From an uncultured Clostridia bacterium (GTDB taxonomy: Bacteria; Bacillota; Clostridia; Christensenellales; UBA1242), in NCBI GenBank assembly GCA_944383685.1, contig CALWQM010000006.1, positions 25,767 through 89,766 of the forward strand: DNA of 64,000 nucleotides, in the 5' to 3' direction. The position numbers and the translations under genes were made by a program. The notes under the pieces are model-generated. The model was not told the DNA's origin and ran no database searches. It saw only the letters and a program-made list of their open reading frames with translations. This document shows positions 6,759 to 45,109 of the stretch, piece by piece (position 1 is the first letter of the stretch; each line of letters opens with the position of its first letter).

Positions 6759-9700
6759 ATGAAAAAAATTAACATATTGTTAGTATCGATTTTTACTGTT
6801 CTTGTTGGAACATTTCTTTCGGCATGTAATTTTAAAACGGAGTCCGCTTCTTTTACGCAAGATGAGATAAGTGTGTCAGTTGGAGATGAGATAAATCTTG
6901 CAGATTACATTGAAGCAAAAGAAGTGGATAAAAATGATATTACCTTCAAATTTTCCAACTCTGCTTTGTTTTCGCAAAATTCTTCTGTTTTAACTGCAAA
7001 TAGTTTTGGGCAAAGCGTTGTTTATGCAACTTATGACGGCAACACTTTGGACAGCATGAGAATAGTTGTTAGAAAGCCTTTTGAACAAGTTACAAATATC
7101 ACCATGGATGATTTGGGGCTTGTTACATGGAACAATGTTGTTGATAAATTTGATGAAACAGAAAATTTTACTTCTCCTTCTCAATATAAGATTCATTTTT
7201 CATATGTCAACATGGATACCCAAGAAACAAGAGAGTATGATGAATTTGTTAATACAAATAGTTATCAACTTGTTGAAAACGGCAGATACACTTTAACATT
7301 TTATGCTGTTGGTGAAGGCAAGTTTGACGATTCTTTGCCAGCAAGTGTAACTGTTTATTTTGGTTATATGCCAAAACTTGCAAAAAGTGATTTTACCTTT
7401 GATGTGACAAACAACACTTTAACATGGTCAAATGTGAGTGATGCTTGTTATTCTGTTGAATTTAACGGACAAGTTATAAGCGAGAAACAAGCTGAAAACT
7501 CAATCAATCTCACAGAAAACTTAGCTTCTTTGGAGGCAGGCGATTATCAGCTTAACATTATTGTGCATGATAAAAACGAAGAAAAAATCAGTGTTAAGAG
7601 TGAAGATATTTTAATCAACAAACTTGTTGCACCAGTTGGAGAGAACTTGTTTGATGAAACTTCTGGCGGTAGATTTCAAATAACTGCACCTGACAATTTT
7701 GAAAAAGTTGAAGTTAAACTTGGCGAAGAATTTTCTTTTGATTTCAATGAAAAAGTTAGTGTTACAACCTTTGAAGGAGTGACAGCTGGAAAATATATGG
7801 TGACAGCAAAAGTGTTTGCAGAAGAAAGCGATACTCCTGGGGTTTTCTATGCTGACAGTGATATAGTTACCCTTGGCTACATCTATAAACTTGACAAATT
7901 AACTTTGCAAGGAACAGGAAACAATGCTGTGGATGCCACTAGTTTTAACTTTGATGTTAATAGGACTTTTAATGAAGTTACATCAAAGGTCAAAGTTGTT
8001 TTAAAAGGCGGAGAAACTGTTGAAAAAGTTGAAGACGGTTTCAGCACCTATGAAAGTAATTTAAACAAAAATGTTGATGTTGCAGAAAGTGGAACATACA
8101 ACCTTTCAGTTTTTGAATTAGCTGGACAGGCAACAATAAATTTTGAAAACGATGATTGCTTTGTTATTAACAGTGATGAGAGTGATTTGTTGAATTTTGT
8201 TAAACTTGATGCATTTTCTAATTTTGCTGGTTATGAGGCTGTTGTGCATGCTTATGAAACTGACAAATCAATTTTGCAATTCAACCTTGTTGAGTCTGCA
8301 TCAAATTACTCACTCTTAGTTAAAAATGCAGAGGAATTTGAAACGGTTGAGCCAGATTTATATTCTTATGAAAATGGAAAGTTTACATTTAATGGAAAAA
8401 TTGAAAATTTGTTTAGTGATTACATAAATTCTAATGAAATCACTTTTAAAATTGTGGCTGAAAATGAAAATAAACAAAATTCAATTTCTTCTTCTGCAAT
8501 TAAGACTTTATCAGTTTTAGAAACTCCAACAAGTGATGGCGGAAACATTGAAAGTGATACATATAGCTTTAATTCAGTTGCCGGCGCTGATGATTATTTT
8601 GTGAGATATGCAATTATAGATAAAGTTCAATATTCACTTGGTGTTGACGGAATAGAAACAGAGAGCTTGTCATTCACAGAAACCACAATAAGCGAAACAA
8701 GTTTAACTCTTGATGCGGGAAATTATTATTACATTGAAATAGCAGCTAACCCAGAAAATGAAAGTTTGAACTTGACCTCAAACACATTTAAAGCTGTTTT
8801 CTTCCTTTCAAAGGCACTTGATACCCCAGTTGTTTCTTTTGGATATGATGAAAGTTATCAAGGAGCAATAACTGATGCAAGCGGTTATTTTCTTAAAGTT
8901 AACAATGTTGAAAATATGGAAAGTTTGACGGTTGTCAATGGTGCAAGCCAAATGACTTCATATTCCACAGGTGAAAATGAAACAATTTATCTTTTTACAG
9001 ATAATTTTAGTGCTGAAATTTCTGTTGATATTATGGTAACTGCACACTCTAATGACTCCACAATTTACTTAGATAGCGAGACCTACACATTGACAGTTAC
9101 AAGGTTAAAAAGTATTCAATATGCAGATTTAATTTTTGACGAACTTACAAAAAACATGACTGTCAAAGGCGGAATTGAAGGGGTTACAAAAATAAGAATT
9201 TTTGAGAGTGGCACAATCAAGGTTGAAAGCCCAAACATTGACGCTGTTTTAGGTATTTCAAAAATAACAAATAGCACAGTGACGGTTAATTTATATGGCA
9301 GTAAACTTGAAGATAAATTATTTGAAGTTGTTGACGACAAAGTTTACCTTGACAGTGCAACATCAACATTTAATTTAAGACGTTTGGAAAGCCCAACTGA
9401 GTTTAGTTATAAAGATGGAAATTTAACATTTGTGACAGACAGAACAAGGGTTGAATATTTTGTTCTTGACATGTTCTTGGTTGATGTAAATAATAATCAA
9501 AAACTTTTAAAAGTCAACTTGACAAGTCCTGAAATTGATGTTGATATTTATGATGTTCTTGCAGACGAAATTGCGTTGATACAAGAAGATATCAAACTTA
9601 CAGGAGAGGTTCTTTCAGGGGATGGTACTTTTGAAATTGACTTTAACACCTTGCTTTCTTTAATTAAAGAAAATGAAACTTTGAACACCTATTATTCACA

Positions 9701-17419: not shown

Positions 17420-17440
17420 ATGAATAGAATTTATCTATGA
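17420..17440 (+). other. Six-codon leader ORF MNRIYL overlapping the next start (ATGA)
   Basis: The SD-like AAGGAAG at 17408-17414 is positioned for ATG 17420, not for ATG 17437. The TGA overlaps the downstream ATG. Confidence 0.45.
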
Positions 17441-18288
17441 AAAAAATTCTTCTTTTTATTTTTCTGTCTTTATCAATCTGCTTAGGCTTATTTAATTTTT
17501 CAAGTGGATTATCCGTAACTGCTGAAAGTGTTGATAACAACAATTCTATTGAATTAATCAAAATTTCCTATGGGCAAAACAACACATTTGTGTATTTGTT
17601 TCCAGTTAATTCCAAAAAACTTGAAGAAATTGGTGTGGACAGCATATCACTTGAAGGGTTCAAGTTTTATTTAAAAGGAAACGTTTCCGTTTTGAAAGCT
17701 GCTTATGAAGAAAAAGCAAAAGAAATTGAAGATATGAAAGTTGAAGATGTTAAATATTACACTGATTATGATGCTGTTGGTTTTGAAATTGAATTTAGTT
17801 CGCTTGATGCATATTCAAAGTTTTTTGGAAGTGATGGGTCAAAAGATAATATAGGCAGTATCAAAAATAGTGGGCTTTTTACGACAAGGACAGACTATGA
17901 AATCAAGTTTCCTTTTTCCTTAAAGTCAGCGGAAGTTTTCAGGAAAATGTATTCAAATTTGGTAACCACATGGGCGGCAACTTTTGAAATTGATGACACA
18001 GCAAAAAATGAAATTGAAGGTGTTTTTGAAGATACCTCTTTTACGTATGAGCTAGTTTCAACAAGTGGGCAAATTCATAGTGACAACACATTTGAAAAAG
18101 ATGGACTTGTTTACAACATTTTTGAAAAGAATTATAGTGAATTGCAAGAAAATGAATATATTTCATTTTACACTGTGAAAGTTAACAAAGGCTGGTGGTA
18201 TTTCTTTGCACTTGTTGCAACTTTGGTGGTTACAGTTATTTGTTTTATTGTTATTAAATTGAAAAGCAAATTTATCCACAAAAATTGA
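17437..18288 (+). CDS. Hypothetical exported protein with C-terminal TM anchor (283 aa)
   Basis: N-terminal signal peptide and C-terminal WWYFFALVATLVVTVICFIVI followed by a basic tail. No terminator separates it from the giant lipoprotein gene. Confidence 0.8.
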   Translation: MKKILLFIFLSLSICLGLFNFSSGLSVTAESVDNNNSIELIKISYGQNNTFVYLFPVNSKKLEEIGVDSISLEGFKFYLKGNVSVLKAAYEEKAKEIEDMKVEDVKYYTDYDAVGFEIEFSSLDAYSKFFGSDGSKDNIGSIKNSGLFTTRTDYEIKFPFSLKSAEVFRKMYSNLVTTWAATFEIDDTAKNEIEGVFEDTSFTYELVSTSGQIHSDNTFEKDGLVYNIFEKNYSELQENEYISFYTVKVNKGWWYFFALVATLVVTVICFIVIKLKSKFIHKN

Positions 18289-20321: not shown

Positions 20322-20343
20322 TAAGAGTCTTAAATTTGTTTGC

Positions 20344-20377
20344 AAAAGAACCTGTGAAAAACAGGTTCTTTTTTTTG
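20344..20377 (+). terminator. Intrinsic terminator of typA
   Basis: AAAAGAACCTGT-GAAAA-ACAGGTTCTTTT plus T run. Confidence 0.88.
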
Positions 20378-20433
20378 ATTTTAGCAATTTTTATTGATTG
20401 GCATAAATAACTTTAAAGAAAACTTGCCATTTA

Positions 20434-20462
20434 TTGACAAAATTATTTTAAATTGATATACT
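20434..20462 (+). promoter_or_regulatory. Sigma-A promoter of the dnaB-gltX operon
   Basis: TTGACA-N17-TATACT with TG extension. Confidence 0.8.
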
Positions 20463-20482
20463 TTAAATATTAGAGAGATATT

Positions 20483-20740: not shown

Positions 20741-20749
20741 GGAGAGAAA

Positions 20750-22932: not shown

Positions 22933-22944
22933 TAAGGAGAGATT

Positions 22945-24027: not shown

Positions 24028-24041
24028 AGGAGTAATCAATA

Positions 24042-25949: not shown

Positions 25950-25979
25950 TTGCATTTTCATTTTATTTTTTTGTATAAT
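25950..25979 (+). promoter_or_regulatory. Sigma-A promoter of the giant membrane protein gene
   Basis: TTGCAT-N18-TATAAT. GGAGT SD before ATG 26018. Confidence 0.55.
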
Positions 25980-32000: not shown

Positions 32001-35000
32001 TTGATTTCAATGCTGACTATTCAAGAAATGAAAATCAAGAATACACACTTGTTGTGAAAGATGCAGACGGCAGCGAGCTTACCAATTATGAAACTTTGGC
32101 TTTAAATGATTATTTTGGATATCGCACAGGTTACAGTGCAAATGGTTGGTTGGTTGCAGACAACAGCGCAAGGATTTCATTATCAACTTATAGAATAGAT
32201 AATTTATATTTCTCGTCAAGATATGCAATGAAAGAAACCTCCGCAAATGCAGGACTAGCTGACTTTGAAATCACAATAAACAAAAACTGGCAGGCAAATA
32301 ATTACACTGTTATTTATTCAAGTGGAGATGGAAGAGTAAATTCTAATATTTTTGGAAATTCCACAGGTAGCATTGACAACAAGGTTGTAAGTTATGACAC
32401 AGCATTTAATATTGCTGAAAATCCTTATCAAATTGTTGGATATGAATTTGCAGGCTGGAACACTGAGGTTAATGGAAGTGGAACAGCTTACACAGCGGAT
32501 CAAGAAGTGAAAAACCTTAGGACTGGGGCAAATGAAAGTGACATAATAAGTGAACCTAACGCAGGACGAACAATTTATCTTTATGCACAATGGACGGCAA
32601 AACAATATCATATTAAATTGGTGGCAAATGGTGGGGAATTTAGTGACGGTGTTACTGAACTTTTTGTTGGACCAATCACATATAACACCGAAATAACTGG
32701 GCTTGATGCCACACCTACACGTGCCGGATTTGAATTTGATGGCTATTATGTTTTTGTTGATGGTGAAAAATTGTCAGCAAATCAAGTTGAAAATGGTGAC
32801 CTTTTAAGAAATAGCATTGCAACTTTCCAAGATAGTGTTTACGAAAATGAGCAAAGTGAACCTTGTTTAGTTCTTTATGCAACATGGCGTTTTGCTGGCA
32901 CAAGTTCGCTTTACTATAACTCTCAAATTTCAAAGACATATATTGGGCTTGGAAAGCAGATTGAAATTAATTTAAGTGAGCTTAGCGCTGAAAACTTTGT
33001 TGATGAAACTGGAAATTTGGTTGTTACAAATGATGAAGACGGATTTAAAATTTCTTCAAACTTTGATTATGTTGATGTTTCTTACGAATTTTCTGGTTTA
33101 GATGGAAACGTTACTGTTGACGAAAGCAATAATATTTTCGTGCCAAGTGCAGTTGGAACATATTATCTCAATTTAAGGGTTATTCTTGCTGATGCTTACA
33201 CTTTTGAAGATTTCAATGGTGTTTATAACCTTGGAGATAACATTTACGAAACTTCATTGTTGATAACTATTAATGTTACTAAGGCAGATGTTGCATACAG
33301 GGAAAATGATAACAGCATAAGGCTTGCAAACATAAGATATTTGGTTTCATTGACAGAAGAAAGCATAATGGTTAACACTTTTAATGGCTTTGACGATTTT
33401 AACGAACTTTTAAGTTATATTCAAAAAACTGATGTAAGTGCAAGTGATATTACCATCGACCAAGCCTATGAATATCTCTTTATGAAATACTTTAATATGG
33501 TTAATGCAACACCTTCAAGTTTTAGAGATTATAGAAATTGGACCTATGATACATATCTTGAATATTACGGCGGAACAAACTACTTTAATGGCGACGACCA
33601 ACTTGAAGAAATTGTGGATGATGGTTCTTTGGGACAAGAAATTATAAACCGCAGAGTGACAAGGAAAAATATTTTGCAAAACACAATGTTTCTTGCAAGT
33701 TACGACTATCAAAACAAAGTAAACTCAATAACTCTTTATGCAGAAAATGGAGTTTATAGATATAACAAAAATCAAATAACCTTATATTCTCTTGAAACAA
33801 GTGAAAGCATTCAAGATGAACTTCAAATTAATGAAATTGTTGTAACTTCAAATAACACAATTTCTCCAAACACCAGTTACCAAGTTAAAGCTTATTTAAC
33901 ATCCATCAATGGTGCAGCAGTAAACTATAATTTATATAGTGATAATCATGGAAACTTTGTATATCTAGATAATGCTTATATTCTTGTTCAAGTTTTAAGA
34001 TTAAAGAATAATGCTGAACTTGCAAAACAATCCACTTTCTTTAATTCAACTCTGCAAAATGTTGATGTAACTTGGGTAAGCGAAGAACAGGCAGAGCAGG
34101 TTTACACCAATGCGGATAATTCAAACTTCTATCCAATTGAAGTTGATTCAAATCTTTATGTGAATGTTGAAATAGAAACATCAAATGCTGGCAGTAAAGA
34201 TGTTGACACAGTCTTCAAATTCTATGATACAAACAATTATTTTAATCTTTCAAATTATCAAATTTATTTAAAGAGTGGCGAGTTTTATCTTAACTATTCA
34301 ACTTATTTCAACTTGATTTTGGATGAAACTTTCACATACACAATTTACAATATTGTTAACACTTCACAAATCAACTTTGCAACATCTCTTTTAACCAAAG
34401 AAGAAGGATATGTTGTAAACAGCGAGATTGACGAAGAGTTAATTTCAGGGCTTTTCAATGTAACAGGGTTTACATATTCTATCAGCGGAAACGAAAAGAC
34501 AGTTGAAGTCAGTGAAGATGGCAAGTATTTCTCAACTGAGGAAGAGGGGAGTATTCTTCTTTTGGATATAACCGGCAACAACACTGCAAGTCCTGTTGTG
34601 TTTAGCGGTGGTGCAGTTAAATCAATCAACTTCCAAATTGCGAGCAAAAACCTTGACACCTACACAAGACTTTACCATGTTGGAACAGACATAATTTTTG
34701 AACTTAATGATGAACATAATGACAACGTCCTTAACACCATTGATTTAAGTGGTTTTGAATTTGTTGATGGCGAAATAAACGAAATTACCTATTATGCTAA
34801 TTATTCCGACCTTGTTAGAGTTGACTATGACATGAATTTACCTATTGAGGTTGACCCATATTCAAGTTATTTGCAACTTGGAGTGGACAAAGAAGATGCA
34901 ATCATTGAGGTAACTCAAACAAACCTTGCTCTTTCAAAGCTTATGTATGTTAAACCAAATAACGAAGAAATTGAGTATCAAAATATCTTCACAGGTCCAG

Positions 35001-38000
35001 ATGGTGTTTATGTTGGCTACTTGGAAGGTAACATGTATGCACCTGTTCAACTTAAAGCATATTGGACCATTGCTGACCTTGAAGTATCAAATTATGGTGT
35101 GGTGGTAAATAACTCCGTTGGACTTGTGGATGAAGTGTATGCAGACGAAGTTGGCTCTTTGATTTCAGAAGAAAATGAACTTTTTAATTATAAATATGAA
35201 ATGCTCAAAGATGGAGTTGTTGTTTCTTCAAGTTCAAGTTTTGAAACTTTAAAAGTTACTTTTGAAAATGGCGGAACTTTAAAAGATAATGGAAATTATA
35301 TTGTTAGAATTACCACAACTATTAAAGATGAGTATGCATACATCTTAGATTCTGCAAGTGAAAAATCAGTTGTTAATGAAAATATCACATTTAGTGTTCA
35401 ATTAATGCCAATTAGGATAACAGCAGTTGGATTTGTTGGACAAAATGAAATCACCTATGATGGCCTTGACCATAAACTTGAATTTCAAATAAGTGTTTCT
35501 TATCAAATGTTCGATGCAAATATTTTAGATTACAGTGATGAAGTTCTTACACAAAACTATCAATATGGACAACTTGAAATGCTTAAAATTGGTATTTTCA
35601 AGGATGATGAAGAACAGACACTTCTTATGAATGCTGGAAGTTATGTTATTCAAATTTCACCAGATGTTAATTTCTATGTGTTGGCAGACAATTTAACCCA
35701 AGACAACTTGAAATTTAACTATTTAATTAATAAATACGAAATAAAACTTGATGAAAAGAATATTCAACTTGGTAAACAATTTAATACAGAAGATGGCGAA
35801 CTTGTTTTCACATTTGTTGAAGCAAATGAAACAATAACTCTTAATTTAACAAGAGATGCAGGTGAAGCCGTTGGAAGTTACGGGCTTTATCTTGAAACCT
35901 TTACTTCAAAAAATAATGAAAATTTCATTGTGAAGTACGAAGAAGTGACTTTATATGAAAATGGAAGCTATTCAAATCTTGACACAAGAATTGGAACTTT
36001 CACAATTTCAAGTGCTGGAAATTTAAGAATTTACTGGGATGTCACAGAAATATATCCAAAGAACTTTGAGGTGGCTTACGATAAAAATGGTTACAGCGCT
36101 TATATTTCAAATGGACAACTGATAATTAAAAATGGTGAAAACAATGTTGCAAGTTTAACTCTTGCTCTTTACGACATAAATGCCAATGAAAGAATAACAT
36201 CACAAGACCTTTTGGATGTTGTTATACCTTTGTTAAATGATGTTAAAGTATATTTATTTAATACATCCAATTTGGAAATTGCTTATAATGCTGCTGTTTA
36301 CTCTTTTGAAACTGAAATCCCTGAAAATTCAGAGATAAAAAATTATTTCCAAAACGTTGTATTTTCAAGTGATTATACTTTGCAAATTATAAGTCAAACA
36401 ATTGATGTTGAAGAATTTGATTTCTCTAAAACTTTTGATGGCACAAGCGAAGCAGTTTTTGACATTGACGGCAATTTGGTTGATTTAACAACCTTTTCTG
36501 GTGTTTATATCAGTGTTAACTATGCTGATATCCATGCAAGTGACAATGTTTCTGCAACACTTGCTCTTGCTTCAAACAGCAGTGAACAGGCATCCAATTA
36601 TGCTTTGTCAAATACAAGAGTTGTTACAAGGATTAATAAGAGAAAAGCAAACATCACATTCAGTTTAAGCCAAGACAGTTTCACTTATGGACAGTTGAAT
36701 GTTTCTAACTTAAAAGATTATGTTTCATATACTGTTCAAGGCGAAGGTGGAGAAAATTTAACCGAATTGTTTAACACATATTCACTTTATAATCTTGCTT
36801 TTGACTTAGATAATGTGACAAATAAAATAAGCTCACAAGGATACTACTATGCTGGAACTTACAGCCTTGTTTCAACATCCACTTATCAAGATTTTGATAT
36901 GACTGAAAATTTGGGCGAAGTTGTTATTTCTCCATATAAATACAGCATAACTCTTCCAGAAAGTTACATTGTTATCACAGTTTTAGATGATGTTGAAAGT
37001 GTTTACACAGAAAACAGAATTTTGGAAGAAACAGGTGACAATTTTGAGGTAAGTTATAGACCTGTTGATGCTGTTAAAGGGAATATTGGTAAATATGATT
37101 TGGAACTTGTTAATTCCCTTTACTTTGACGGGAATGTGGAAGTTTCAATTAACACTCCAAACAATGCATTTGAGATTACCGAAGCCACTAACACTTTATA
37201 CCTTGAACTTGAAAATCCAGAAATATTGGAACAAGTTTACAATGCAAAAGTTTACACAATGACAACCAGTGCAGAAGAGTTTACGGTTACAGTGGAAAAC
37301 GAAGATGTTGGCTTTGAAACAGTTTCAAGTAAATTTAAATTCTATTATTATGACGAAGCTGGCGAAAAACAATATTTGGAAAATGGCGAATTTTCTAATA
37401 TTGAAATTTACTATAATGAAAACATCACCACCTTTAAGGATGTTGGAAATTATAAATTGACTTTGAATGCTGAAAGTGATTTGTATGAAAAGGTTGCTTT
37501 TGCAGAAAATTATTACTTTGTGATTTCTGGAAAAGTTATTGATGTTTCAACTTTAACTTTCACAAAAGTTTATGATGGAAACAATTATGTCGTTGTTAAC
37601 AATATCCCTGATGTCATTGCAGGCGACGATGTTTCAGTAAGGGCAATTTATAGTTCAATGAATGCAGGCGATTCAATTGGTGTAAGCCTTTATCTTAATG
37701 GTGAATCTGCCAAAAATTATGTTCTTTCTTCAAATATGAGTGTGGGCTCAATCACTAAACGAGATGCAACGATAAGTTTAACACAAGATAGCTTAATGTA
37801 TGGAACAGTGTTGAAAGACACAAGTTCATTCAGTTTCACAGTTACCGCTGATGGTGAAGCGGTTGCAGTAAATCAATATGTAATCACTGCAACTGTTAAA
37901 GATGGCGTATATAATGGAAACTATTTAACAAAAGGTGACTATGCTTTAACTCTCAATGTTGAAAGTCAAAACTATAACATAACATCATCTGGTGAAATTA

Positions 38001-41000
38001 TATTACATATTGTTCCAAATGAACTTTCTTTCACAATTTCCACAGATGGACTTTACATGACATCATCAGGAACAACGGAGAGTAAATCAAACACATTCAC
38101 AAGAAGTTATCTCACTTCGTATGGTGACACAATTAACATTGAATACACAAGAGAGCCTGGCTCAACTGTTGGGTATTACAGAATTTTAAGCGGAAAAGTT
38201 TTGGATAATGAAAACTACACCGTTAAAAATGTCACAGATGAAAGTGCAAATGGTGGTTTTAGAATTGTTATTTCAAATGATGTGCTTTATCTTCTTGCAA
38301 GTGAAGATGCAGAAATAACGACACAAGAAGAAGGCAACATTTTGAACTTGACTTATGATGGAAACAATTATGATAAAGTTACAATCAACTTAACTAGTGA
38401 TGGTTACGAATTAGTTTTAAGTAACAGCACAGATGAAAGCATTAAACAAACATATAAACTTAACTTGTATTCTTATGATGAAGGGACAGGAACTTACACG
38501 TTAACAGACATTCAAGATAATTCAATAATTGCAAACGCTTATTTAGACGCAACCAACCCTATTGTTAAGGATGTTGGCAATTACATCATATATAGTGGCG
38601 AAGTGACAAGTGATAACTTCACAATAAGATTAGGTAAGGCAAATTCTCTTTATTCATATATGGTTAGGGTTTCACCTTGCACACTTTACTTTAACACTTC
38701 AACAATCAGCAAAATTTTTGATAACAATGAAGCGGTAATTACATTTAGCAGTGCGAAAGAAGTTTTAAACGGCTTTATTGGAAGTGATGATGCAACTCTT
38801 AAAGTAACATTCTATGATAGTGATGATAATGTTGCTGTTTATGCTGGAAGCGGTTACCGCATTGAGGCAGAACTTAGCGGAAACAACAATTATGTTGTTG
38901 AGCTGACAATGCAAGACGGCACAGAAGTGACAGGAACAATCGATAAAGCTCCTTTGATTGTGAATGTTAATAATGCAACTGCAATTTATGGCAACCCTTA
39001 TAATTTAACTTACACATTCACAAGTGAAACACTAGACTTGAATGCATACGATACCTCTAAGATTAATTTCTCATTAAGTGTGCTCAGCCCAATTTACACC
39101 ACTTCAAACAACTTGAAGGTTGGGGAATATAGACTTAATTATGAATTTAATTCTAATGATTTTTACATCTATATGTTTAATTGCAACAATATTCTTCAAG
39201 AGAATTTAAATTCAACATTACAAATTACTCCAAGGGAATTGACAATTCAAGAAACTGATACAGCTTTAAGCGAAATCTTCACAAAGCAATTTGACAATTC
39301 TGCTGATGCTGAAATTTTTGATGAAGGCGGGCAACTTTTGTTTGGGCTTTCAAATGTTATGGCGGGTGATGATGTCACAGTTTTAAGCGGAACTTATGCT
39401 CAAAAAGAAGTTGGAACATTGATTAAAGTGACTTTCACATTGGGCGGAACTGATTTTGAAAACTACACCGTTAAAACCTATGATTTTGGACAAATTAATT
39501 CTGTTATTATCAATTTAACTTTTGACTATGTGGCAGGTGATGATGAGGTTGTTTCCAATGTTGACCTTGCAGGACTTAAAACAATTTCTATGTTAAGTTA
39601 CCCATTCATATCAAATAACTACATAACAGAAAATTCAGCAAGTGAAGACACAAACAAATCTCGTAACTTCCCAACAGTTCTGACTGGAAAAACTGGAAAC
39701 ACATTCAGCCATTGGGTTTTGGAACTTTCCGCAACAGAAAGTTCTCCGGAATATATATTCCTTGATAACTTATTGAACGATATTGGCAATGAATACACAT
39801 ATGAAAATGGTGTGTTCTTAATTACAGTTGGAAACAATGCAATCACAGTAAGTTTGATTAACAACTTGGTGAGTGATGAAAATGATTATTTTGGTGTAAG
39901 TTACTTTGCTCATGAAGATATCAACTTCACTTTCAAAGCCGTTTGGATTGGAGATGTTTATCAAGTTAGTGTTAAAACTCAAAATGCAAATGGAGAGTTG
40001 TCCACAGAGTTTGCACAGGTTATGGTAAACAATAAAGAAATGGCAACTGCAAGTGAAATTCAATCTGTTAATTTTGGTGACCAAGTTGTAATAAATGTTA
40101 CAACCAATCCTTATGTTAAACTTTTAGGTTTCTTCAATGAACTTAATGATGAGATGTATGTTGATGGAGAAGGTTGTACCATTGAGCAGGCTGGCAATTT
40201 AACAACAATAACTTTTGATAACATGCAAAGCAGTATCTTTGTTGTTATTAAATTTAGTTATGCAGATGTTGCAATTACATTAGACCTATCAACATTTACT
40301 GATGAAATAACATTTAATGACCCTAATTTTGTTCCAATAGGAAGCAAGATTTACACATGGAAAACTGATTACAGTGCAATCAAAAATCTTTATGTAAGTG
40401 ATTTGCCAACATTGAGTAGAACAGGCTTTACAGTTTCAAACTACACATTCAATGGGCTTCAAATTGTTAATGCAAGCGACTTTGCTTCTAGACAACTTCA
40501 AGAATTTTTAGTTGGAGCAGAAAATGGTAATTATGAAATAACCTACATTCCTGCTTTTGTTGGGAAACAAGTTGATGTAACACTTGATTATGGTTACGAT
40601 GGCATCACTGAAATCATCCAAGTTCCATATCAAGGCAAGTTTGCTGATTCAACTGGCTGGAAAGAAACTATTGAAAGAGTGGGTTATGACTTTAATGGTT
40701 GGTTCAATGGTGAACAACAAGTGACAGGGGAAGACCAACTTATGGACGAAACGGGACTCACGCTTTTTGCTCACTGGACAGCACAAAAGAACACTGTTGA
40801 CTTAACCATTGAAAACATGACAATCACTTATGCTTCAACTACTTACCTTGAACAAGATGGACATTACATATTTAGTGATTTAGATTATGGCACAACATTA
40901 ACCATCTCTTTAACTCCTGATGAAGGATATGAAGTTGACAGCATTAAATACACTCATATTGACAGCGAAGAAAAAGATGTTATCTTCAATACATCAGCAG

Positions 41001-44000
41001 AAGGAGTTGCAACATTAACCTTTGATATATTAGAGCCACCAACAATTTACATGACTGCTTCAAGCAAAGCAAAGACAAACACAGTTGAAGTTCTTGGTGA
41101 CCATATTGACTCATTTACTGCATATAAGAACGGAAATGAAGAAATCCAAGTTTCTGGAAATAGTTTTGAAGTTGAAACAAATGTGGATATAAGACTTGTT
41201 GTTAACATTATGGAAGGTTTCGACTTTACAGACTTTGTAATAAGTGACAGAGATGTTGTTTCAAATTACAGTTTAAGCGGAAATGAATTGACAATTAATT
41301 TATCTAATATAAATAAATCATTCTCAGTAACAATCAATGCTGTTGAAAGAACAAATAAGGTTCATTTGAGTTTTGATGATACAAGTTTGGTTGATGCTTT
41401 GGTTGTTGATAATCAAAATGTCAACTCATATGACTTTGATGTTTTGACTGGACAAATTCTTACAATCTACGCAAAACTTGTTGTGGGTTACAGTGTTGAC
41501 ACAGTGACATCAACTTCATACTCAACTTCACTTAACGAAATAACTGACACTTCTAGCCCATACTTTGGATATTATGAAATTGTTGTGGATGGAATAAACA
41601 GAGATGGAACTGTTGAAATAACAACAAAACGCACAGTTTACACTTTGAAGGTTGAAACCATTGTTTATGGCGACAACCAAGAGATTGTTCAAGACAGTAA
41701 TAACAAAGCCTTTGTCAATGGGCAAAGCGAAGTGAGCCTTGAATATCTTACCAATGTTTCACTCACAGCCGAAGCAGAAACTCTTTACAGTTTTGCTGGT
41801 TGGAGTAAGGATGGTGAAGAAGTGTTCAGCACTGAAAATCCACTTTCCTATGAAATAACTCAAAATGAAACAATTTACGCAATCTTCTCTAAACTTGAAT
41901 TTACAATTAATTTAAATTCATATAACCACTACTTCTTATACACTGAATATAATGACGCTGATAGAACACAAGAAGTTTATGACCAAATTTACACAGCACC
42001 ATTCTATGAAGAAGATATGGAAACTCAAATTTCAGCAGTTAAATTGTTCTATGGTGCTTCAAAAACAATTTATCTTGAAGTTCCAACAGGTTACATCTAT
42101 GAAGGCTTTGGATATATTAGAGCAGACGGCACTTATGAATATATTTTAAGGGAAAATTCAGCTGACAAAATGATTGAAATTTATCTTTCAACCTTTGATT
42201 TTGAAGTTGAAAATTCAACAGTTAACTTGTTTGTTGCACTTTCTGCCCTTGAAGCAAACATCAAGGTTTCCTCTTGGATAGATTTTGACGGCACTTATGA
42301 AGAAGACGATAAGGTTGGCGACATTTCTCTTGTGAGTGTTCTTGGCGAAAGTGTTAATAGATATGGTTATGTTGATGGAACAAGAAACCATTATGACAGC
42401 AATTCCTTTATTCAAGGAAGCGGACTTGTGGATAGCAGAAATATGACAATCATAAGTTACACAAGTGACACAATTTATCTTAAAATTAAATCAACAAGAC
42501 CAGGATATTTCTTCTCAACATTAACTGTTGACAATTCAAGTGTTATGGTTTCAGTTAAGGATGTTGTTAACGAAGAAGATGGTACATATTGTATCTATCA
42601 AATATCCAACTTTGTTGGCGGTGGAAATGATTTGAATGTTTCAGTTTACTTTAAACCACAAAAGAACATCACAACAATCAATTTCATCAATGAAAATGGT
42701 TCGGTTGTGGATGGCGGTAACTTACATATTCAAGTTGAAAGCGAATACTCAGGAAAGATTTGGGCAGATGGAACAAACTTCTCATCAATGAAAGTCACAG
42801 GTTTCACAGACACTAAATTCTCAGTTGTGGCATACATAAGACTTGGCTTTATGATTGATGAAGAAAACATTGCAATCACATTCAATGATGCACTTGTTAA
42901 AGTTGATAATATTAGATTTGAAAAACTTATGTTTGAAAAGACAAACTATAACTATGCAATCTATTTTGATGTGTATGATTATGCTGACGACACCACAATT
43001 TCAATCAATGTGATTCCACAAACATATTCGGTTATCCTTAGAGATGAAACTCTTGAAAATCCTGAACTTGTGAGAATTGATAATGTTAAATTCCATGAAG
43101 CGATTGATTTATCAATTGCAAACCAAGGAAACATCACAATTTATGACGAGTTTATGGGCTTTAATGAAACAGGCTTAAATGTTGTTCAATCAAGAGATAA
43201 CTATGCATTTGGTGGTTACTTCACTTATGCAGGTGGTAAAGGTATCCAATATATCAATTCAAGTGGTTTAACTTTGATTGATTTCATGGAAACAGGCTAT
43301 GAATTTGATGAACAAGAACAAATTTATAAACTTACCGACAATGCCTATATTGAAACAGATGGCACAATTGTGATAAATCTTTACTTATATTGGTCATATC
43401 TTAAAACCCAAATCAACTTTGAGATTGTTCCAAATATCAGCATTGGTTCAACGGCACTTGATATTGTGCAAGGAGTTGATTTAACAAACTCTTGGTATAA
43501 CGATGTTTCTCCACTTTATATTGAAGTTGCATTTAACACGAATATCAACTTTGTTGCACCTGAAATTGCTGGTTATAAATTCTATAAATTTGTTATCAAA
43601 CAAAAAGATTTCAACAATAACTGGCTTACAGATGTTGTAAGTTATTCAACTTCTGTTCCTTGGTCAACAAACGAATATGACAGAATTGTTGAAGTTCATG
43701 TTCAACTTGTTTACTTTGCAAAGGTTGACGTTCAACTTTATGGCGGAGAATTGGAATTTGAAATAACGCAAACCGCAGATGACAACACAGCTCGTAACCT
43801 TATAAGAGAAGGATATGTTGACACGACAAAAGATTTCACTCTCACTGCATTAGAGTCCGCAGGTTATGACTTTGTTTACTGGCAAAATATTGCAACAGGT
43901 CAAAGATACACAAGTTCATCTTTCACAACAAGAATAAATGAAAGAACAATCTTCCTTTTGTATGCACAAGGGAAAGAAGTGAACTTGCTGTTTGATGAGT

Positions 44001-45109
44001 ATGATGCCACAGACGGACAAATTGTCATGCTTCAAACAAGAACTCAAACTGGTAATATGTCAACACAGATTTTAGGTTCGTTTATCAACGGCTCATTTGT
44101 TAAAGTTTTGAATAGAGTAACCTTGCATGTTGGTGACACCGTTACATTTGTTATGAACATTAACTTTGGTTATGGTGTTGAATTTAATTTGGAGGATGTT
44201 GAGTTAACTCAAATGACTTCACAATATTATTACTTCACAATGAAGCTTGGAGAAAGCCTTGCAAATCAGTCATTGCAAGTTATTCCAACTTTTGTTGGTG
44301 AAAGTGTGGCGTTCTATGTTGAGCAGATATTTGGTGAAGATGAAATAATCAGCAATGCCATCGATGGAAACAATGCCGATTATGCAGGTTACACATCTTA
44401 CAATGACGAAATAACAGATGTTATAACCGACAGCATTCACACAGAAATCAACATTAAAGTTAACGTGACAGCGAGGTATAGAGTTGTTTCTATTAAAGCA
44501 ATTTCAAACAATGGAACAATTTTAGATATAACAAGTTGCTATAATGATATTGACAGCATTTTAAGCCTTTCTCCAAACTATATGGCAGAAAACAACATTG
44601 CAGGAACATTGCAACTTCAAATTGAGTATGAAAGATTGTATTATGGGGATTCAATAATTGAAGAATCTGGCTCAGGCACAGAAGATGACCCATACACAAT
44701 TTCAACGGCAGATGAACTTGCATATTACATGACCAGAATCAACAATGGAGCTGTCAACAACAATGGGCTTAGATATGCCGAAGCAAATTACATTATTATG
44801 GCAGATATAAGTTTGGGAGAAAAATTCTGGACACCTATTGGAACTTATGAAAATCCATTTAACGGAACATTCAATTTCAATAGCCACAGAATTGACACCA
44901 TTGGTCTTGCTGTGATTTATGACCAAACAAGTTATGGCGGACTTTTTGGAGTGCTTGGTGAAAATGCAACAATTTACATGAGCATAACAAATTATTGGTA
45001 TATCTACATAATTATTGCGATTGTTTTACTTTTAATCATTCTCTTAATCATTCTTCTTTTGGTGAACAAAAAGAGAAAGAAACGCAGAGAAGAACTTAAC
45101 GTGAAATAA
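26018..45109 (+). CDS. Giant type I membrane surface protein (~6363 aa): GLUG-type heads, InlB B-repeat (Listeria-Bacteroides), MBG- and YDG-like stalk domains, C-terminal TM
   Basis: Signal peptide MKIRSW...NNVASA. Head motifs are YLETDIDL..NWAPIG..FTGTFDG with VGGVVG/VGGIAG/IGGIVG rungs, and GEGTIDSPYLI at ~27656. InlB-B-like GYEFAGWNTEVNGSG..LYAQW at ~32300-32890 and ~40570-40790. YDG-like FTKVYDG..AGDDVSV..KNY units at ~36420-39500. TM at ~44993-45063 with a KKRKKRR tail. No LPXTG. Confidence 0.85.
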   Translation: MKIRSWLCSFLFVLCGIMGAYTLTLPTFNNVASAVSDDASVWNGEYPSSVSKNDFYVDEGKNEAYIYSAKGFAYFAQSLTMNNASYSNTTVYLETDIDLKERNWAPIGSRNQANSFAAFTGTFDGKNHTIYNLKIDSSSTYTYFDGRSYSYTDTYVGLFASIGQGGSVSNLHLANVNINYGVNNAYVGAIAGQVSNGGWISSVSVNGSISANSAFGVGGVVGTAVGRLSSEPLAQYTPKTFNLEKNEAGRDTYISKVVNRASVSGGTKVGGIAGISNYSVLFEECANYGELSSAQSSGNIYIGGIVGSADDSDTNSYIVVQNAFNMGDLVIDKSNINAGGILGYSATNRSRNYFEIRNAYNAGDFLTNSTGLSNVNVSGIIGSAANPNYFYCYTDSSNEENNSNKYYLYGTFNIGNLIDANNGNELTSATGVTFRDLIYFTTNSSVSIEKETVLYDYDTANTSGTDLQYASKIAQLDGKISNIDFLENTLLWNKTRDEKGIVDVNSNQNIWAINRNYNESLPYLTFIYDSSFTDKDTETSVEDLWLGEGTIDSPYLIYTAEDLARIADVNNGKSFGAGKEDNPIYFSLQNNIDLSSQAWTPIGIDGGSFENSVFDGNNFTISGINCSLQVEYNEAVGLFGTISNSIIRNVKIKDFRYIGSTSTTDPIKATLVGRMQDSYIINCADLTGRSENTVGETVILGENTTQKSYVIYGKNNIENVSNNYKANISLPNESGQLIEGYLVTLNLKNGTLYDSFADSNIEVHKGNSQFVLTGASDGETSGYGLLDMSSLDPTYLTSLPVDTLNVENNQNNTSNVIIKPGFIISGYTIAGVADDGGLDGEKKFADIGASFSSNVSSDGSPNDIFKLVESGVNAYWTEHADIEYTVYTNKFEKTVADKTGTDYLEITGDNVLTISTPYNTYWSIAEFVNSLNAEMELQGTARQGFEISGIFPEFDEEKAEFGGTSLNLSGESGVGFFLNQNEDYFIQWKGTENYTITLNLVDNSSEYKGRFDFKDAILNVDVKFNTDTEIEGMTANQITYNYSNFVEDKLLINFSMEYLDNFDRLLSSSEDIYSFISENIEIVITLKDGFTFDTGLDSEDHETLVQNYFKDSGILNLSTNTDKSYNAVYGQAKLDMNTETGADVSNHTMTISLAEFVGNVSLNVPIIRGNYSFPINVGEGVYFGLTLPETVSNVGWYQVLSPNTERFVDMQDYNLEFNRAVSNSNNFSLGLNMFDNYLISTSAKSQETTFDCFDMTANTSYYTGTDGIGKQLIIYDTENNVYYLFEFTTSVEGEIQYFDQTLYLISASESTKYSVADSYTKLDMIARITLELSGSDNFDRVAGDDFGGIVYNTRPFASVTYYTNANFGLVFSTETNEAQINNHQTGPDGRVNYLYSQNITSGGNTSTQYYKISYYFDNPADGTVNVGGEESIVYNFSYLASYINGTSNLKISQTRTTATFNIHFVDEEGNPLFTSEETKNQAPTIRAQINSTGNYSIVQESVQVDTNNASNIKFTIENNNYYEWVNRGTSDEGVNLAVGSHDSSAYALYFDINIDKTTESGVESVVDGIDNILKGSTTSSGIKTDNSTRKAYSFTLNFNLMYSASGDIIPLAYEYDLTFVLKKVNFKVNVETVFRQRSTASDAEYYNDDVAQISISNTSTAESGQNALFNYGDTMQVSTNIKVGSDGKPVTQGYEFVGYRIILNTGDSITKQNIEISGNDNSSFEMTIQEFLSNYQNAFESYIAGDEDVYSYTIQAIYQSKMISYEATSSKFLINNYNGNIYDESKNNADVSFSFDSASIFSKMDTVDDSGLSVENANRGQFYYYNSSTTTGGNTLESVKIVYDLKATYATKYAFKGFAIVVSDNYQTNSIVDPNSYASQLFLDGQGGNAFEILSSGTGSEQTYSLSIKGSFIVDYLRTCMADENFVGNNGFVNKTFYILPVMEQKSLIINLTSGYTNFGDSESQIVYNTGADEVENTTTNTVTLKYYYRSNISVDFNADYSRNENQEYTLVVKDADGSELTNYETLALNDYFGYRTGYSANGWLVADNSARISLSTYRIDNLYFSSRYAMKETSANAGLADFEITINKNWQANNYTVIYSSGDGRVNSNIFGNSTGSIDNKVVSYDTAFNIAENPYQIVGYEFAGWNTEVNGSGTAYTADQEVKNLRTGANESDIISEPNAGRTIYLYAQWTAKQYHIKLVANGGEFSDGVTELFVGPITYNTEITGLDATPTRAGFEFDGYYVFVDGEKLSANQVENGDLLRNSIATFQDSVYENEQSEPCLVLYATWRFAGTSSLYYNSQISKTYIGLGKQIEINLSELSAENFVDETGNLVVTNDEDGFKISSNFDYVDVSYEFSGLDGNVTVDESNNIFVPSAVGTYYLNLRVILADAYTFEDFNGVYNLGDNIYETSLLITINVTKADVAYRENDNSIRLANIRYLVSLTEESIMVNTFNGFDDFNELLSYIQKTDVSASDITIDQAYEYLFMKYFNMVNATPSSFRDYRNWTYDTYLEYYGGTNYFNGDDQLEEIVDDGSLGQEIINRRVTRKNILQNTMFLASYDYQNKVNSITLYAENGVYRYNKNQITLYSLETSESIQDELQINEIVVTSNNTISPNTSYQVKAYLTSINGAAVNYNLYSDNHGNFVYLDNAYILVQVLRLKNNAELAKQSTFFNSTLQNVDVTWVSEEQAEQVYTNADNSNFYPIEVDSNLYVNVEIETSNAGSKDVDTVFKFYDTNNYFNLSNYQIYLKSGEFYLNYSTYFNLILDETFTYTIYNIVNTSQINFATSLLTKEEGYVVNSEIDEELISGLFNVTGFTYSISGNEKTVEVSEDGKYFSTEEEGSILLLDITGNNTASPVVFSGGAVKSINFQIASKNLDTYTRLYHVGTDIIFELNDEHNDNVLNTIDLSGFEFVDGEINEITYYANYSDLVRVDYDMNLPIEVDPYSSYLQLGVDKEDAIIEVTQTNLALSKLMYVKPNNEEIEYQNIFTGPDGVYVGYLEGNMYAPVQLKAYWTIADLEVSNYGVVVNNSVGLVDEVYADEVGSLISEENELFNYKYEMLKDGVVVSSSSSFETLKVTFENGGTLKDNGNYIVRITTTIKDEYAYILDSASEKSVVNENITFSVQLMPIRITAVGFVGQNEITYDGLDHKLEFQISVSYQMFDANILDYSDEVLTQNYQYGQLEMLKIGIFKDDEEQTLLMNAGSYVIQISPDVNFYVLADNLTQDNLKFNYLINKYEIKLDEKNIQLGKQFNTEDGELVFTFVEANETITLNLTRDAGEAVGSYGLYLETFTSKNNENFIVKYEEVTLYENGSYSNLDTRIGTFTISSAGNLRIYWDVTEIYPKNFEVAYDKNGYSAYISNGQLIIKNGENNVASLTLALYDINANERITSQDLLDVVIPLLNDVKVYLFNTSNLEIAYNAAVYSFETEIPENSEIKNYFQNVVFSSDYTLQIISQTIDVEEFDFSKTFDGTSEAVFDIDGNLVDLTTFSGVYISVNYADIHASDNVSATLALASNSSEQASNYALSNTRVVTRINKRKANITFSLSQDSFTYGQLNVSNLKDYVSYTVQGEGGENLTELFNTYSLYNLAFDLDNVTNKISSQGYYYAGTYSLVSTSTYQDFDMTENLGEVVISPYKYSITLPESYIVITVLDDVESVYTENRILEETGDNFEVSYRPVDAVKGNIGKYDLELVNSLYFDGNVEVSINTPNNAFEITEATNTLYLELENPEILEQVYNAKVYTMTTSAEEFTVTVENEDVGFETVSSKFKFYYYDEAGEKQYLENGEFSNIEIYYNENITTFKDVGNYKLTLNAESDLYEKVAFAENYYFVISGKVIDVSTLTFTKVYDGNNYVVVNNIPDVIAGDDVSVRAIYSSMNAGDSIGVSLYLNGESAKNYVLSSNMSVGSITKRDATISLTQDSLMYGTVLKDTSSFSFTVTADGEAVAVNQYVITATVKDGVYNGNYLTKGDYALTLNVESQNYNITSSGEIILHIVPNELSFTISTDGLYMTSSGTTESKSNTFTRSYLTSYGDTINIEYTREPGSTVGYYRILSGKVLDNENYTVKNVTDESANGGFRIVISNDVLYLLASEDAEITTQEEGNILNLTYDGNNYDKVTINLTSDGYELVLSNSTDESIKQTYKLNLYSYDEGTGTYTLTDIQDNSIIANAYLDATNPIVKDVGNYIIYSGEVTSDNFTIRLGKANSLYSYMVRVSPCTLYFNTSTISKIFDNNEAVITFSSAKEVLNGFIGSDDATLKVTFYDSDDNVAVYAGSGYRIEAELSGNNNYVVELTMQDGTEVTGTIDKAPLIVNVNNATAIYGNPYNLTYTFTSETLDLNAYDTSKINFSLSVLSPIYTTSNNLKVGEYRLNYEFNSNDFYIYMFNCNNILQENLNSTLQITPRELTIQETDTALSEIFTKQFDNSADAEIFDEGGQLLFGLSNVMAGDDVTVLSGTYAQKEVGTLIKVTFTLGGTDFENYTVKTYDFGQINSVIINLTFDYVAGDDEVVSNVDLAGLKTISMLSYPFISNNYITENSASEDTNKSRNFPTVLTGKTGNTFSHWVLELSATESSPEYIFLDNLLNDIGNEYTYENGVFLITVGNNAITVSLINNLVSDENDYFGVSYFAHEDINFTFKAVWIGDVYQVSVKTQNANGELSTEFAQVMVNNKEMATASEIQSVNFGDQVVINVTTNPYVKLLGFFNELNDEMYVDGEGCTIEQAGNLTTITFDNMQSSIFVVIKFSYADVAITLDLSTFTDEITFNDPNFVPIGSKIYTWKTDYSAIKNLYVSDLPTLSRTGFTVSNYTFNGLQIVNASDFASRQLQEFLVGAENGNYEITYIPAFVGKQVDVTLDYGYDGITEIIQVPYQGKFADSTGWKETIERVGYDFNGWFNGEQQVTGEDQLMDETGLTLFAHWTAQKNTVDLTIENMTITYASTTYLEQDGHYIFSDLDYGTTLTISLTPDEGYEVDSIKYTHIDSEEKDVIFNTSAEGVATLTFDILEPPTIYMTASSKAKTNTVEVLGDHIDSFTAYKNGNEEIQVSGNSFEVETNVDIRLVVNIMEGFDFTDFVISDRDVVSNYSLSGNELTINLSNINKSFSVTINAVERTNKVHLSFDDTSLVDALVVDNQNVNSYDFDVLTGQILTIYAKLVVGYSVDTVTSTSYSTSLNEITDTSSPYFGYYEIVVDGINRDGTVEITTKRTVYTLKVETIVYGDNQEIVQDSNNKAFVNGQSEVSLEYLTNVSLTAEAETLYSFAGWSKDGEEVFSTENPLSYEITQNETIYAIFSKLEFTINLNSYNHYFLYTEYNDADRTQEVYDQIYTAPFYEEDMETQISAVKLFYGASKTIYLEVPTGYIYEGFGYIRADGTYEYILRENSADKMIEIYLSTFDFEVENSTVNLFVALSALEANIKVSSWIDFDGTYEEDDKVGDISLVSVLGESVNRYGYVDGTRNHYDSNSFIQGSGLVDSRNMTIISYTSDTIYLKIKSTRPGYFFSTLTVDNSSVMVSVKDVVNEEDGTYCIYQISNFVGGGNDLNVSVYFKPQKNITTINFINENGSVVDGGNLHIQVESEYSGKIWADGTNFSSMKVTGFTDTKFSVVAYIRLGFMIDEENIAITFNDALVKVDNIRFEKLMFEKTNYNYAIYFDVYDYADDTTISINVIPQTYSVILRDETLENPELVRIDNVKFHEAIDLSIANQGNITIYDEFMGFNETGLNVVQSRDNYAFGGYFTYAGGKGIQYINSSGLTLIDFMETGYEFDEQEQIYKLTDNAYIETDGTIVINLYLYWSYLKTQINFEIVPNISIGSTALDIVQGVDLTNSWYNDVSPLYIEVAFNTNINFVAPEIAGYKFYKFVIKQKDFNNNWLTDVVSYSTSVPWSTNEYDRIVEVHVQLVYFAKVDVQLYGGELEFEITQTADDNTARNLIREGYVDTTKDFTLTALESAGYDFVYWQNIATGQRYTSSSFTTRINERTIFLLYAQGKEVNLLFDEYDATDGQIVMLQTRTQTGNMSTQILGSFINGSFVKVLNRVTLHVGDTVTFVMNINFGYGVEFNLEDVELTQMTSQYYYFTMKLGESLANQSLQVIPTFVGESVAFYVEQIFGEDEIISNAIDGNNADYAGYTSYNDEITDVITDSIHTEINIKVNVTARYRVVSIKAISNNGTILDITSCYNDIDSILSLSPNYMAENNIAGTLQLQIEYERLYYGDSIIEESGSGTEDDPYTISTADELAYYMTRINNGAVNNNGLRYAEANYIIMADISLGEKFWTPIGTYENPFNGTFNFNSHRIDTIGLAVIYDQTSYGGLFGVLGENATIYMSITNYWYIYIIIAIVLLLIILLIILLLVNKKRKKRREELNVK

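Follow-up and report, generated by a model that had tools for sequence, protein, structure and literature searches.

The stretch under study is a window of 64,000 nucleotides (nt) from an uncultured Clostridia bacterium (GTDB lineage Bacteria; Bacillota; Clostridia; Christensenellales; UBA1242; GenBank assembly GCA_944383685.1, contig CALWQM010000006.1, positions 25,767 to 89,766), and "the window" always means this whole stretch. Its source genome measures 1.13 Mb and is 99% complete. Two genes dominate the window and are the subject of this analysis. One, at 6759..17390, encodes a protein of 3543 amino acids (aa), the other, at 26018..45109, a protein of 6363 aa; all window features given here lie on the forward (+) strand. 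Both were found in the six-frame list of open reading frames (ORFs) where an earlier note, made from the letters alone, had placed them, and together they take up 29.7 kb of the 64 kb (29,745 of the 64,000 bases if the second gene is counted from an alternative TTG start at 25997, which would lengthen its product to 6370 aa). The ATG at 26018 is preceded by GGAG and fits the N-termini of the orthologues, which begin with MK[IV][KR]S.

The two proteins are anchored at opposite ends, as the earlier note had recognized. The 3543-aa protein begins with a lipoprotein signal peptide (6759..6827): its N-terminus reads MKKINILLVSIFTVLVGTFLSAC followed by NFK, with the lipobox LSAC and the lipobox cysteine at residue 23. 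About 30 orthologues share the N-terminus MKK...L[SA][AG]C.FK. The motif agrees with the bacterial lipoprotein pattern [LVI][ASTVI][GAS]C after a signal peptide, the genome encodes both Lgt (217 bits) and LspA (117 bits), and lipid modification is predicted. The 6363-aa protein starts with a signal peptide (26018..26119) and a likely signal peptidase I site between VASA and VSDD. A lipobox candidate (FVLC) at the same N-terminus was rejected, since leucine at position -1 is atypical and the orthologues have no cysteine there. At its C-terminus (44993..45106) a hydrophobic helix of about 24 residues, the predicted transmembrane segment YWYIYIIIAIVLLLIILLIILLLV, is followed by the basic cytoplasmic tail NKKRKKRREELNVK. 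This anchor is nearly invariant among the orthologues, including the tail N-K-K-K-K-x-K-R-E-E-L-x-x-K. We also considered a special C-terminal sorting signal; no NCBIfam CTERM model reached its threshold, and we take the segment for an ordinary stop-transfer helix. In several other anchored proteins from this genome W/Y-rich residues stand just ahead of the helix (NYWYIY, SNWWIW, GWWYFF), and this pre-helix and tail pattern could be a recognition motif.

The genome encodes two penicillin-binding proteins, and no sortase was found in it. In a walled, sortase-less cell the surface proteins must therefore be held by a lipid or by a membrane helix, and both solutions recur among other very large proteins. 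We counted at least seven giants of 2781-12137 codons, spread over at least four contigs and amounting to ~118 kb or ~10% of the DNA. Outside the window these are a 12,137-codon frame (C5:7909-44319, +) and a 2781-codon frame (C6:6008-14350, -), each with a signal peptide and a C-terminal membrane helix, two lipoproteins of 6920 codons (C2:51571-72330, +) and 3503 codons (C2:91743-102251, +), and an open frame of 4136 codons (C16:30580-42987, -). One of these five has an N-terminal membrane helix. Because both anchor modes recur in the genome, the mirror-image topology of the two giants in the window reflects generic anchoring and does not, in our view, point to a designed pair.

The stalk of the 3543-aa protein extends over 6828..16334, and searches of Pfam, NCBIfam and PDB sequences with it returned no match. 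We modelled residues 24-860 with AlphaFold2 (AF2), that is 837 of ~3170 stalk residues or about a quarter; the stalk of the 6363-aa protein was assigned by sequence only. The model, with a predicted local distance difference test score (pLDDT) of 89.6, is all-beta and contains about 9 sandwich domains. In a Foldseek search its best match was the neck and base of the grappling-hook protein GhpA of Aureispira (E 1e-16), and further matches included a mouse cardiac thick-filament chain and the fibronectin type III (FN3) chains of gp130, the leptin receptor and fibronectin. Profile self-comparison showed many remote repeats of ~80-100 aa at probabilities of 85-97%. For the modelled quarter an FN3-like assignment is supported by the predicted structure. 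At ~93 residues per domain the complete stalk would comprise ~34 strongly diverged beta-sandwich domains of FN3 or immunoglobulin (Ig)-like type. Taking typical FN3 dimensions as a guide, its extended length would be of the order of 0.1 micrometre, and the order of 0.1-0.2 micrometre that had been estimated earlier for the two giants is plausible if the proteins are extended.

The stalk of the 6363-aa protein (28232..44665) is of another kind. Pfam matches above threshold are Flg_new at 32303-32512 and 40664-40774 and Flg_new_2 at 41750-41893, MBG_2 gave a weak match, and most of this stalk matched no family. Orthologues carry precomputed PF09479, PF18657 (YDG) and PF18998 annotations, and one of them is named 'InlB B-repeat-containing protein' by NCBI. 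Sequence searches of Pfam, NCBIfam and the PDB with the two proteins in full length yielded next to nothing. The view that the two giants have unrelated stalks was upheld: one is FN3/Ig-like by model and Foldseek, the other carries Flg_new and Flg_new_2, and the profile of the 3543-aa stalk showed no similarity to the 6363-aa protein (probability 1%). Residues 2004-2300 of the 6363-aa protein share repeats with the 12,137-codon frame.

The 3543-aa protein ends in a beta-helix head (aa 3199-3543, 16353..17387), identified by AF2 modelling, Foldseek and hhalign. Its cap GSGTQEDPYVI begins at nt 16353, where it had been read before. The AF2 model, computed from 29 head sequences, has a pLDDT of 89.8 and a predicted TM-score (pTM) of 0.90 and shows a cap helix followed by a beta-solenoid. 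The top Foldseek match in the PDB is 3n6z, a 'putative IgA1 protease' from Bacteroides ovatus (BACOVA_03286; E 4.9e-4, probability 1.0, TM-score 0.46), and the next are the IgA1 proteases of S. pneumoniae and Gemella (6xjb, 6xja, 7uvl, 7uvk; probability 0.95-1.0, TM-score ~0.45). At ranks 3-4 stands the adhesin solenoid of the L. reuteri serine-rich repeat protein (SRRP) at a probability of 0.5-0.66. Pectate-lyase-type enzymes also occur in the list, with probabilities of at most 0.3 and TM-scores of at most 0.25.

In the 6363-aa protein two head modules lie at the N-terminus. Module 1 (~aa 46-450, 26132..27346) is a beta-helix of M26_N/GLUG type that passes the Pfam cut-off of PF05342 Peptidase_M26_N (30.2 bits against 27.7, E 3.4e-7) and is related to the N-terminus of a 1677-codon ORF of the same genome. 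Module 2 (~aa 554-745, 27656..28231) starts with the cap GEGTIDSPYLI and counts among the better conserved parts of the N-terminal region. Next to the membrane lies a third head-like module, a truncated one (GSGTEDDPYTI..., aa 6224-6326, 44666..44974), which runs directly into the membrane helix. It was detected by BLASTP against module 2 (E 2e-9) and by its match to positions 481-580 of profile A2, which represents the 6363-aa heads (E 5e-12). The module is kept in the same ORF of the orthologues and falls within one of the best conserved parts of the protein. The earlier placement of the heads at the membrane-distal end is thus right for the C-terminus of the 3543-aa protein and for the N-terminus of the 6363-aa protein, and incomplete for the latter in view of this module beside its anchor.

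Pairwise BLAST between the heads of the two giants is marginal (E 0.003), and profile alignment joins the two head families at an hhalign probability of 97.2% (E 3.5e-11, 228 columns). That the giants carry the same head family, as proposed in the earlier note, holds at the superfamily level; the 3543-aa head was modelled and matches the M26/GLUG beta-helix, and the 6363-aa heads were assigned by sequence profiles. The 3543-aa head has no Pfam match even at E 10, and its link to PF05342 runs through hhalign and fold. For PF07581 GLUG (gathering score 20.5 bits) the 6363-aa protein scored 9.2 bits (E 2.4) and the 3543-aa protein gave no match; some orthologues and homologues carry the family as a precomputed annotation. 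'GLUG-type' is therefore used here as a superfamily-level description and not as a Pfam call. We found no HExxH motif in either giant, in agreement with the earlier reading, and no match to Peptidase_M26_C, which sets both apart from the M26 IgA1 metalloproteases. Pfam and NCBIfam scans of the giants likewise gave no match to glycoside hydrolase or lyase families. In the pneumococcal IgA1 protease the corresponding beta-helix is a non-catalytic N-terminal domain that grips and gates the substrate and opens to admit it (PMC7695701).

The head module is found well beyond the two giants. With the profile of the 6363-aa heads it was detected in at least six more ORFs of the genome, 208 to 1677 codons long, and BLAST found head-like segments inside two other giants; on other ORFs the family is sometimes internal or present at both ends. 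One of the ORFs found with the profile, of 819 codons, has a head between a signal peptide and a C-terminal membrane helix and is, by its predicted layout, a miniature of the 6363-aa protein. A 208-codon frame (G000 C12:92745-93368, -) encodes a signal peptide and a head-cap module (GSGTEDDPYIV) before it ends, and resembles the broken-off beginning of a larger surface gene with a head. A locus search with the head alignment A2 returned mostly distant head-bearing proteins from many phyla and few true orthologues, and a search of genome contigs with the single 3543-aa head sequence returned no relative. The cap motifs FDGNGHTI and PYLIxTAxDL recur in large proteins of Bacteroides, Treponema, Planctomycetota, Dehalococcoidia, Synergistaceae and many Clostridia (L014, L033, L043, L048 and others). 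Judged from these searches, the head module is very widespread and the two full-length families are narrow.

We determined the distribution of both families in databases and among related genomes. The last 351 residues of the 3543-aa protein had only 53 matches among 1.84 billion representative proteins, nearly all of them at the extreme C-terminus of proteins of ~3100-3900 aa, most with the same lipoprotein signal. Within the genus (genomes of 0.7-1.3 Mb) this head is present in 26 of 37 genomes, including that of the window, and always in a single copy; 24 other families of the order gave no match. Frames carrying it have ~3160-4010 codons if the contig is complete. Full-length alignment of 34 orthologues is collinear with few gaps, and most members that start with the lipoprotein signal measure 3529-3876 aa. 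For the 6363-aa protein we found 15 orthologues of 6169-6444 aa, of which 7 were aligned and proved collinear with few gaps. At least eight genus members have frames of 6100-6440 codons that encode both the N-terminal heads and the C-terminal module, and several more gave weaker matches in frames of similar size. Identity across species within the giant families is 30-45%, and neither giant gene contains tandem or dispersed DNA repeats.

Conservation was also followed along the two proteins and between strains, as the earlier note had proposed as a check of whether heads or stalks vary faster. In the 3543-aa family, where identity per 100 residues ranges from 0.18 to 0.41, the membrane-proximal 100 residues reach 0.41 and the core of the head 0.37-0.38. 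In the 6363-aa family the region behind the heads (aa 800-2000) is the most variable (0.22-0.30), aa 5600-6370 are the most conserved (up to 0.63) and the heads are intermediate. Overall the heads are as well conserved as the stalks or better, and the variation between strains clusters at the end of head module 2. Against a strain of 98.6% identity, 40 of 89 amino acid differences fall within aa 501-750 and gather around aa 700-745 (28094..28231), small insertions and deletions included. Metatranscriptome contigs show a replaced segment at 28101-28215, within this patch, and a 12-nt deletion at 28583. The patch at aa 700-745 may be a ligand-contact or antigenic loop.

Co-occurrence and synteny of the two genes, which had likewise been put forward as a check, both hold in close relatives, and more distant members differ. 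The distance from the end of the first gene to the start of the second is 9.7-11.2 kb on the same strand in G033, G008, G035, G013 and G003; in L007 the intervening genes follow the window's order, and synteny was seen in at least six genomes overall. More distant members of the genus have only one of the two giants at the thresholds used, or the gene lies in another context. G010 carries a 6435-aa gene in a different context and in G002 only the C-terminal module matches, so that orthology in these two is uncertain.

The sequence of the window was found in chicken-gut metagenomes of about a dozen studies and in four chicken-gut metatranscriptomic cDNA libraries, in which the two giants appear as separate contigs. 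In run X26 the 3543-aa gene is covered by a contig of 6762-17415 (word depth 38), followed by contigs over a 283-aa gene (17443-18344, depth 5.7), typA (18364-19916, depth 32), dnaB to gltX (20485-25597, depth 44) and the 6363-aa gene (26001 to beyond 45599, depth 41). Contigs of the 3543-aa gene begin at 6762 in two runs, and in other runs those of the 6363-aa gene start at 25988 or 26008 and end at 45084-45158. Sevenfold differences in depth between adjacent units argue for RNA rather than contaminating DNA. From the contig boundaries, each giant gene would form a transcription unit of its own, and contig ends may also reflect strain branching. The own sigma-A promoters attributed to each giant in the earlier note are consistent with these boundaries, but the sites themselves are weak. 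Upstream of the 3543-aa gene a promoter-like site (6691..6720; TTGATA, 18 nt, TG, TAAAAT; 10 of 12 matches) is no commoner than in shuffles of the AT-rich spacer. The candidate promoter of the 6363-aa gene (25950..25979; TTGCAT, 18 nt, TATAAT) was read by eye ahead of the contig starts at 25988, 26001 and 26008, and is not picked up by a consensus scan. Upstream of both giants, poly-G or poly-C promoter tracts are absent, and a simple scan found no intrinsic terminator after either gene.

Several described systems resemble the two giants in part. In fibrillar adhesins a stalk of repeated small beta domains lifts a distal globular domain from the surface anchor (PMC9210967), an architecture that both giants share. 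Flg_new, Flg_new_2 and MBG are listed among the stalk domains of this class (PMC9210967); the 6363-aa protein carries the first two, and the 3543-aa stalk is joined to the class by model and Foldseek and has no Pfam stalk domain. Monzon et al. also describe a cluster of distal domains overlapping Peptidase_M26_N; its best match is 3N6Z, it counts hundreds of thousands of metagenomic homologues, and they call its function ambiguous (PMC9210967). The heads of the giants are M26_N-type beta-helices of this class, with the same best structural match. The giants differ from typical fibrillar adhesins in having no significant LPXTG motif, in a genome without sortase, and an N-terminal lipid or C-terminal membrane helix instead. 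In the 3543-aa protein the order is moreover inverted, the anchor lying at the N-terminus and the head at the C-terminus. In addition, the stalk domains of both are strongly diverged, non-repetitive in DNA and fixed in number, and with 3.5-6.4 thousand residues the giants are well above the usual range. Periscope proteins are defined by near-identical tandem repeats whose number varies between strains; here we found no DNA repeats and steady lengths.

Another parallel by description is given by Giant1-5 of Apilactobacillus kunkeei, several extracellular proteins 3000-8000 aa long that account for 6% of a 1.5-Mb genome (Pedersen et al., Genome Biol Evol 2026, PMC12863079). Their distal beta-solenoid heads resemble the SRRP binding region, and their extended length has been estimated at ~0.2 micrometre (PMC12863079). 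Small genome, several giant extracellular proteins, distal beta-solenoid heads and an estimated extended length of ~0.2 micrometre are common to both cases, the likeness being one of description only. Giant1-5 have mostly alpha-helical repeat stalks, C-terminal SH3b-like wall binding, no membrane anchors and consecutive genes, whereas the giants studied here have beta-sandwich stalks, membrane anchors and genes dispersed over at least four contigs, and take up ~10% of the genome. The M26 IgA1 proteases (S. pneumoniae 6xja and 6xjb, G. haemolysans 7uvk) and BACOVA_03286 (3n6z) share the head fold, and head module 1 passes PF05342. In contrast to these proteases, the giants have neither the middle or C-terminal protease domain nor HExxH nor a G5 domain, and the structural similarity is limited to a TM-score of ~0.45 at 10-15% identity. 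GhpA of Aureispira (9flp, 9fly; bioRxiv 10.1101/2024.01.29.577165), the best match of the 3543-aa stalk model, is likewise a chain of Ig/FN3-like sandwiches in a giant cell-contact fibre, but the resemblance is one of domain strings only (TM-score 0.18), and GhpA forms multimeric hooks with another tip in a Gram-negative predator. The binding region of the L. reuteri SRRP (5ny0, 5nxk; PMC5866549) offers a distal beta-solenoid adhesive domain on a long surface protein of a gut commensal. Its match to the 3543-aa head is weak (TM-score 0.22), and the giants lack serine-rich repeats and LPXTG. Serine makes up 9-10% of their residues, no serine-rich tracts are present, and no sortase was found; SecA2/Y2 was not searched for.

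On this evidence we consider it probable that both giants are fibrillar adhesin-like surface proteins, anchored in the membrane and carrying non-catalytic beta-helix heads for a ligand. Surface exposure, extended shape and adhesive function of both are what we infer from their architecture. The 3543-aa protein would be exported by the Sec pathway, receive its lipid on Cys23 and thus be held in the membrane by its N-terminus, and its ~34 diverged FN3/Ig-like sandwiches would carry the C-terminal head through and past the wall. The 6363-aa protein would be exported by means of its cleavable signal peptide and retained by the C-terminal stop-transfer helix, and would display the pair of beta-helix modules at its N-terminus on a long stalk made up in part of Flg_new/InlB-B-type domains. 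The best conserved, proximal domains of each giant would span the wall. As non-catalytic relatives of the M26_N/GLUG beta-helix that are homologous to each other, the heads most likely serve in binding. Their ligand is probably a glycan or some other surface polymer, displayed by host mucus or epithelium, by food particles or by other bacteria; SRRP and further solenoid adhesins make glycans, by analogy, the most plausible choice. The two giants are best read as separately transcribed, vertically inherited members of a repertoire of at least seven, not as a coupled two-part machine.

A coupled machine is what the earlier note had proposed: a dedicated apparatus in which two oppositely anchored tethers of defined length show the same head family to one target for cell contact. 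The homology of the heads, the tightly kept lengths of both families and the similar depths in run X26 (38 and 41) are in line with this, as is the presence of both genes in all ten closest genus members with strong matches, in five of which they lie 9.7-11.2 kb apart on the same strand, with identical order in L007. Where gene order is conserved within a genus, however, vertical descent would by itself produce such synteny, and distant members have one giant only (at the thresholds used) or another context. The two genes appear to be separate transcription units with housekeeping genes between them, at least five more giants have the same anchor types, at least six ORFs besides these carry the head family, which also occurs in internal positions, and a head-like module lies at the membrane end of the 6363-aa protein as well. 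The paired apparatus as originally claimed is therefore not supported, and we hold it to be quite unlikely. A wider version appears just as doubtful to us. In it the giants form a conserved surface organelle of fixed-length fibres in a chicken-gut Clostridia genus of 0.7-1.3 Mb genomes. The 3543-aa and 6363-aa proteins would act as rulers of ~0.1 and ~0.2 micrometre that hold homologous heads at two set distances and dock the cell onto a partner cell or host surface supporting its reduced metabolism, with the membrane-end module as a docking or assembly element.

Two further accounts question adhesion itself. The heads might be catalytic, as polysaccharide lyases, glycosidases or an unrecognised protease, and the giants fibrillar enzymes whose stalks keep the heads at a distance from the cell, where they digest mucin, plant polymers or the walls of neighbours. 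Pectate lyases, polygalacturonases and tailspike depolymerases do fold as a right-handed beta-helix and are found further down the Foldseek list, and distal domains of Peptidase_M26_N type have been classed as ambiguous and possibly catalytic (PMC9210967). Yet the best head matches, at probabilities of 0.95-1.0, are the non-catalytic helix of the IgA1 proteases and 3n6z, far ahead of the enzymes (at most 0.3; TM-score at most 0.25), and neither HExxH, an M26 catalytic domain nor a Pfam or NCBIfam match to glycoside hydrolases or lyases was found; we regard enzymatic fibres as unlikely. Slightly less improbable, though still poorly favoured, is a structural role in the envelope, where a fixed-length spacer, coat or fuzzy layer sets the distance to other cells or to a surface or shields the wall from phage, immunity or enzymes and adhesion is secondary. 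Length and collinearity kept at 30-45% identity without repeat turnover, best conserved membrane-proximal parts, a cDNA depth like that of housekeeping genes and the ~10% of a 1.13-Mb genome devoted to such proteins would all suit this role. On the other hand, terminal heads of a family known from adhesin-like, substrate-gripping proteins suggest binding, the strain-variable head patch suggests a variable interaction partner, and we saw no sign of lattice formation or self-association.

The adhesin-like reading preferred here has itself to be set against several findings. Most of both stalks is without family assignment. The heads are conserved as well as the stalks or better, where fast-evolving adhesive tips would be expected to vary more, and only one small head patch varies between strains. 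Fixed length and lack of repeat turnover are unlike most fibrillar and periscope adhesins and could point to a structural role. The beta-helix fold is common to many glycan-degrading enzymes, which makes a catalytic head possible. As to transcription, the depth of contigs reflects expression poorly, and DNA may be present in cDNA libraries.

What sets the giants apart from described systems is membrane anchoring by lipid or helix in a walled, sortase-less Clostridia lineage, together with the inverted order of the 3543-aa protein, the fixed length with domain-by-domain orthology, and the share of the genome involved. A 1.13-Mb genome spends ~10% of its DNA on at least seven giant surface proteins, of which at least two are apparently transcribed in the chicken gut at housekeeping-like levels. 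This makes the giants prime candidates for the means by which an uncultured Clostridia lineage, one that probably depends on a partner or host, keeps its niche. Along the whole length of the 3543-aa family there is no curated domain model, and nearly all its members belong to a single genus. In both families length and domain order are maintained from species to species, in contrast to most adhesins built of repeats. As the heads are small, confidently modelled and easy to express, the question of the ligand is directly testable.

The genomic surroundings of the giants agree with the earlier note, which had placed both among core genes. The flanks comprise pflB/pflA, an rluA-type pseudouridine synthase, typA, dnaB, gltX, uppP, a P-type ATPase and holB, and no mobility genes were found among the flanking genes of either giant. 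The two giants are separated by a housekeeping block (18489..25673) with typA, dnaB, two small membrane or lipoproteins (22045-22932 and 22945-24027) and gltX; the named genes were identified by Pfam matches, and the order is the same in L007. Ahead of this block lies the gene of a 283-aa secreted protein (17437..18288) with a C-terminal membrane anchor (GWWYFF... followed by a basic tail), which has no family match in Pfam or NCBIfam and a positional homologue of 286 aa in L007. Three small proteins between the giants have no family match (17437-18288, 22045-22932 and 22945-24027), and their position is kept in L007. The 283-aa protein has a signal peptide and a C-terminal membrane helix, the 295-aa protein an N-terminal membrane helix, and the 360-aa protein is a helical lipoprotein. 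Upstream of the promoter region of the 6363-aa gene, the spacer at 25719-25872 is taken up by AT-rich tandem repeats whose periods are 11, 16 and 46 nt, with 2.2 copies of the 46-nt unit.

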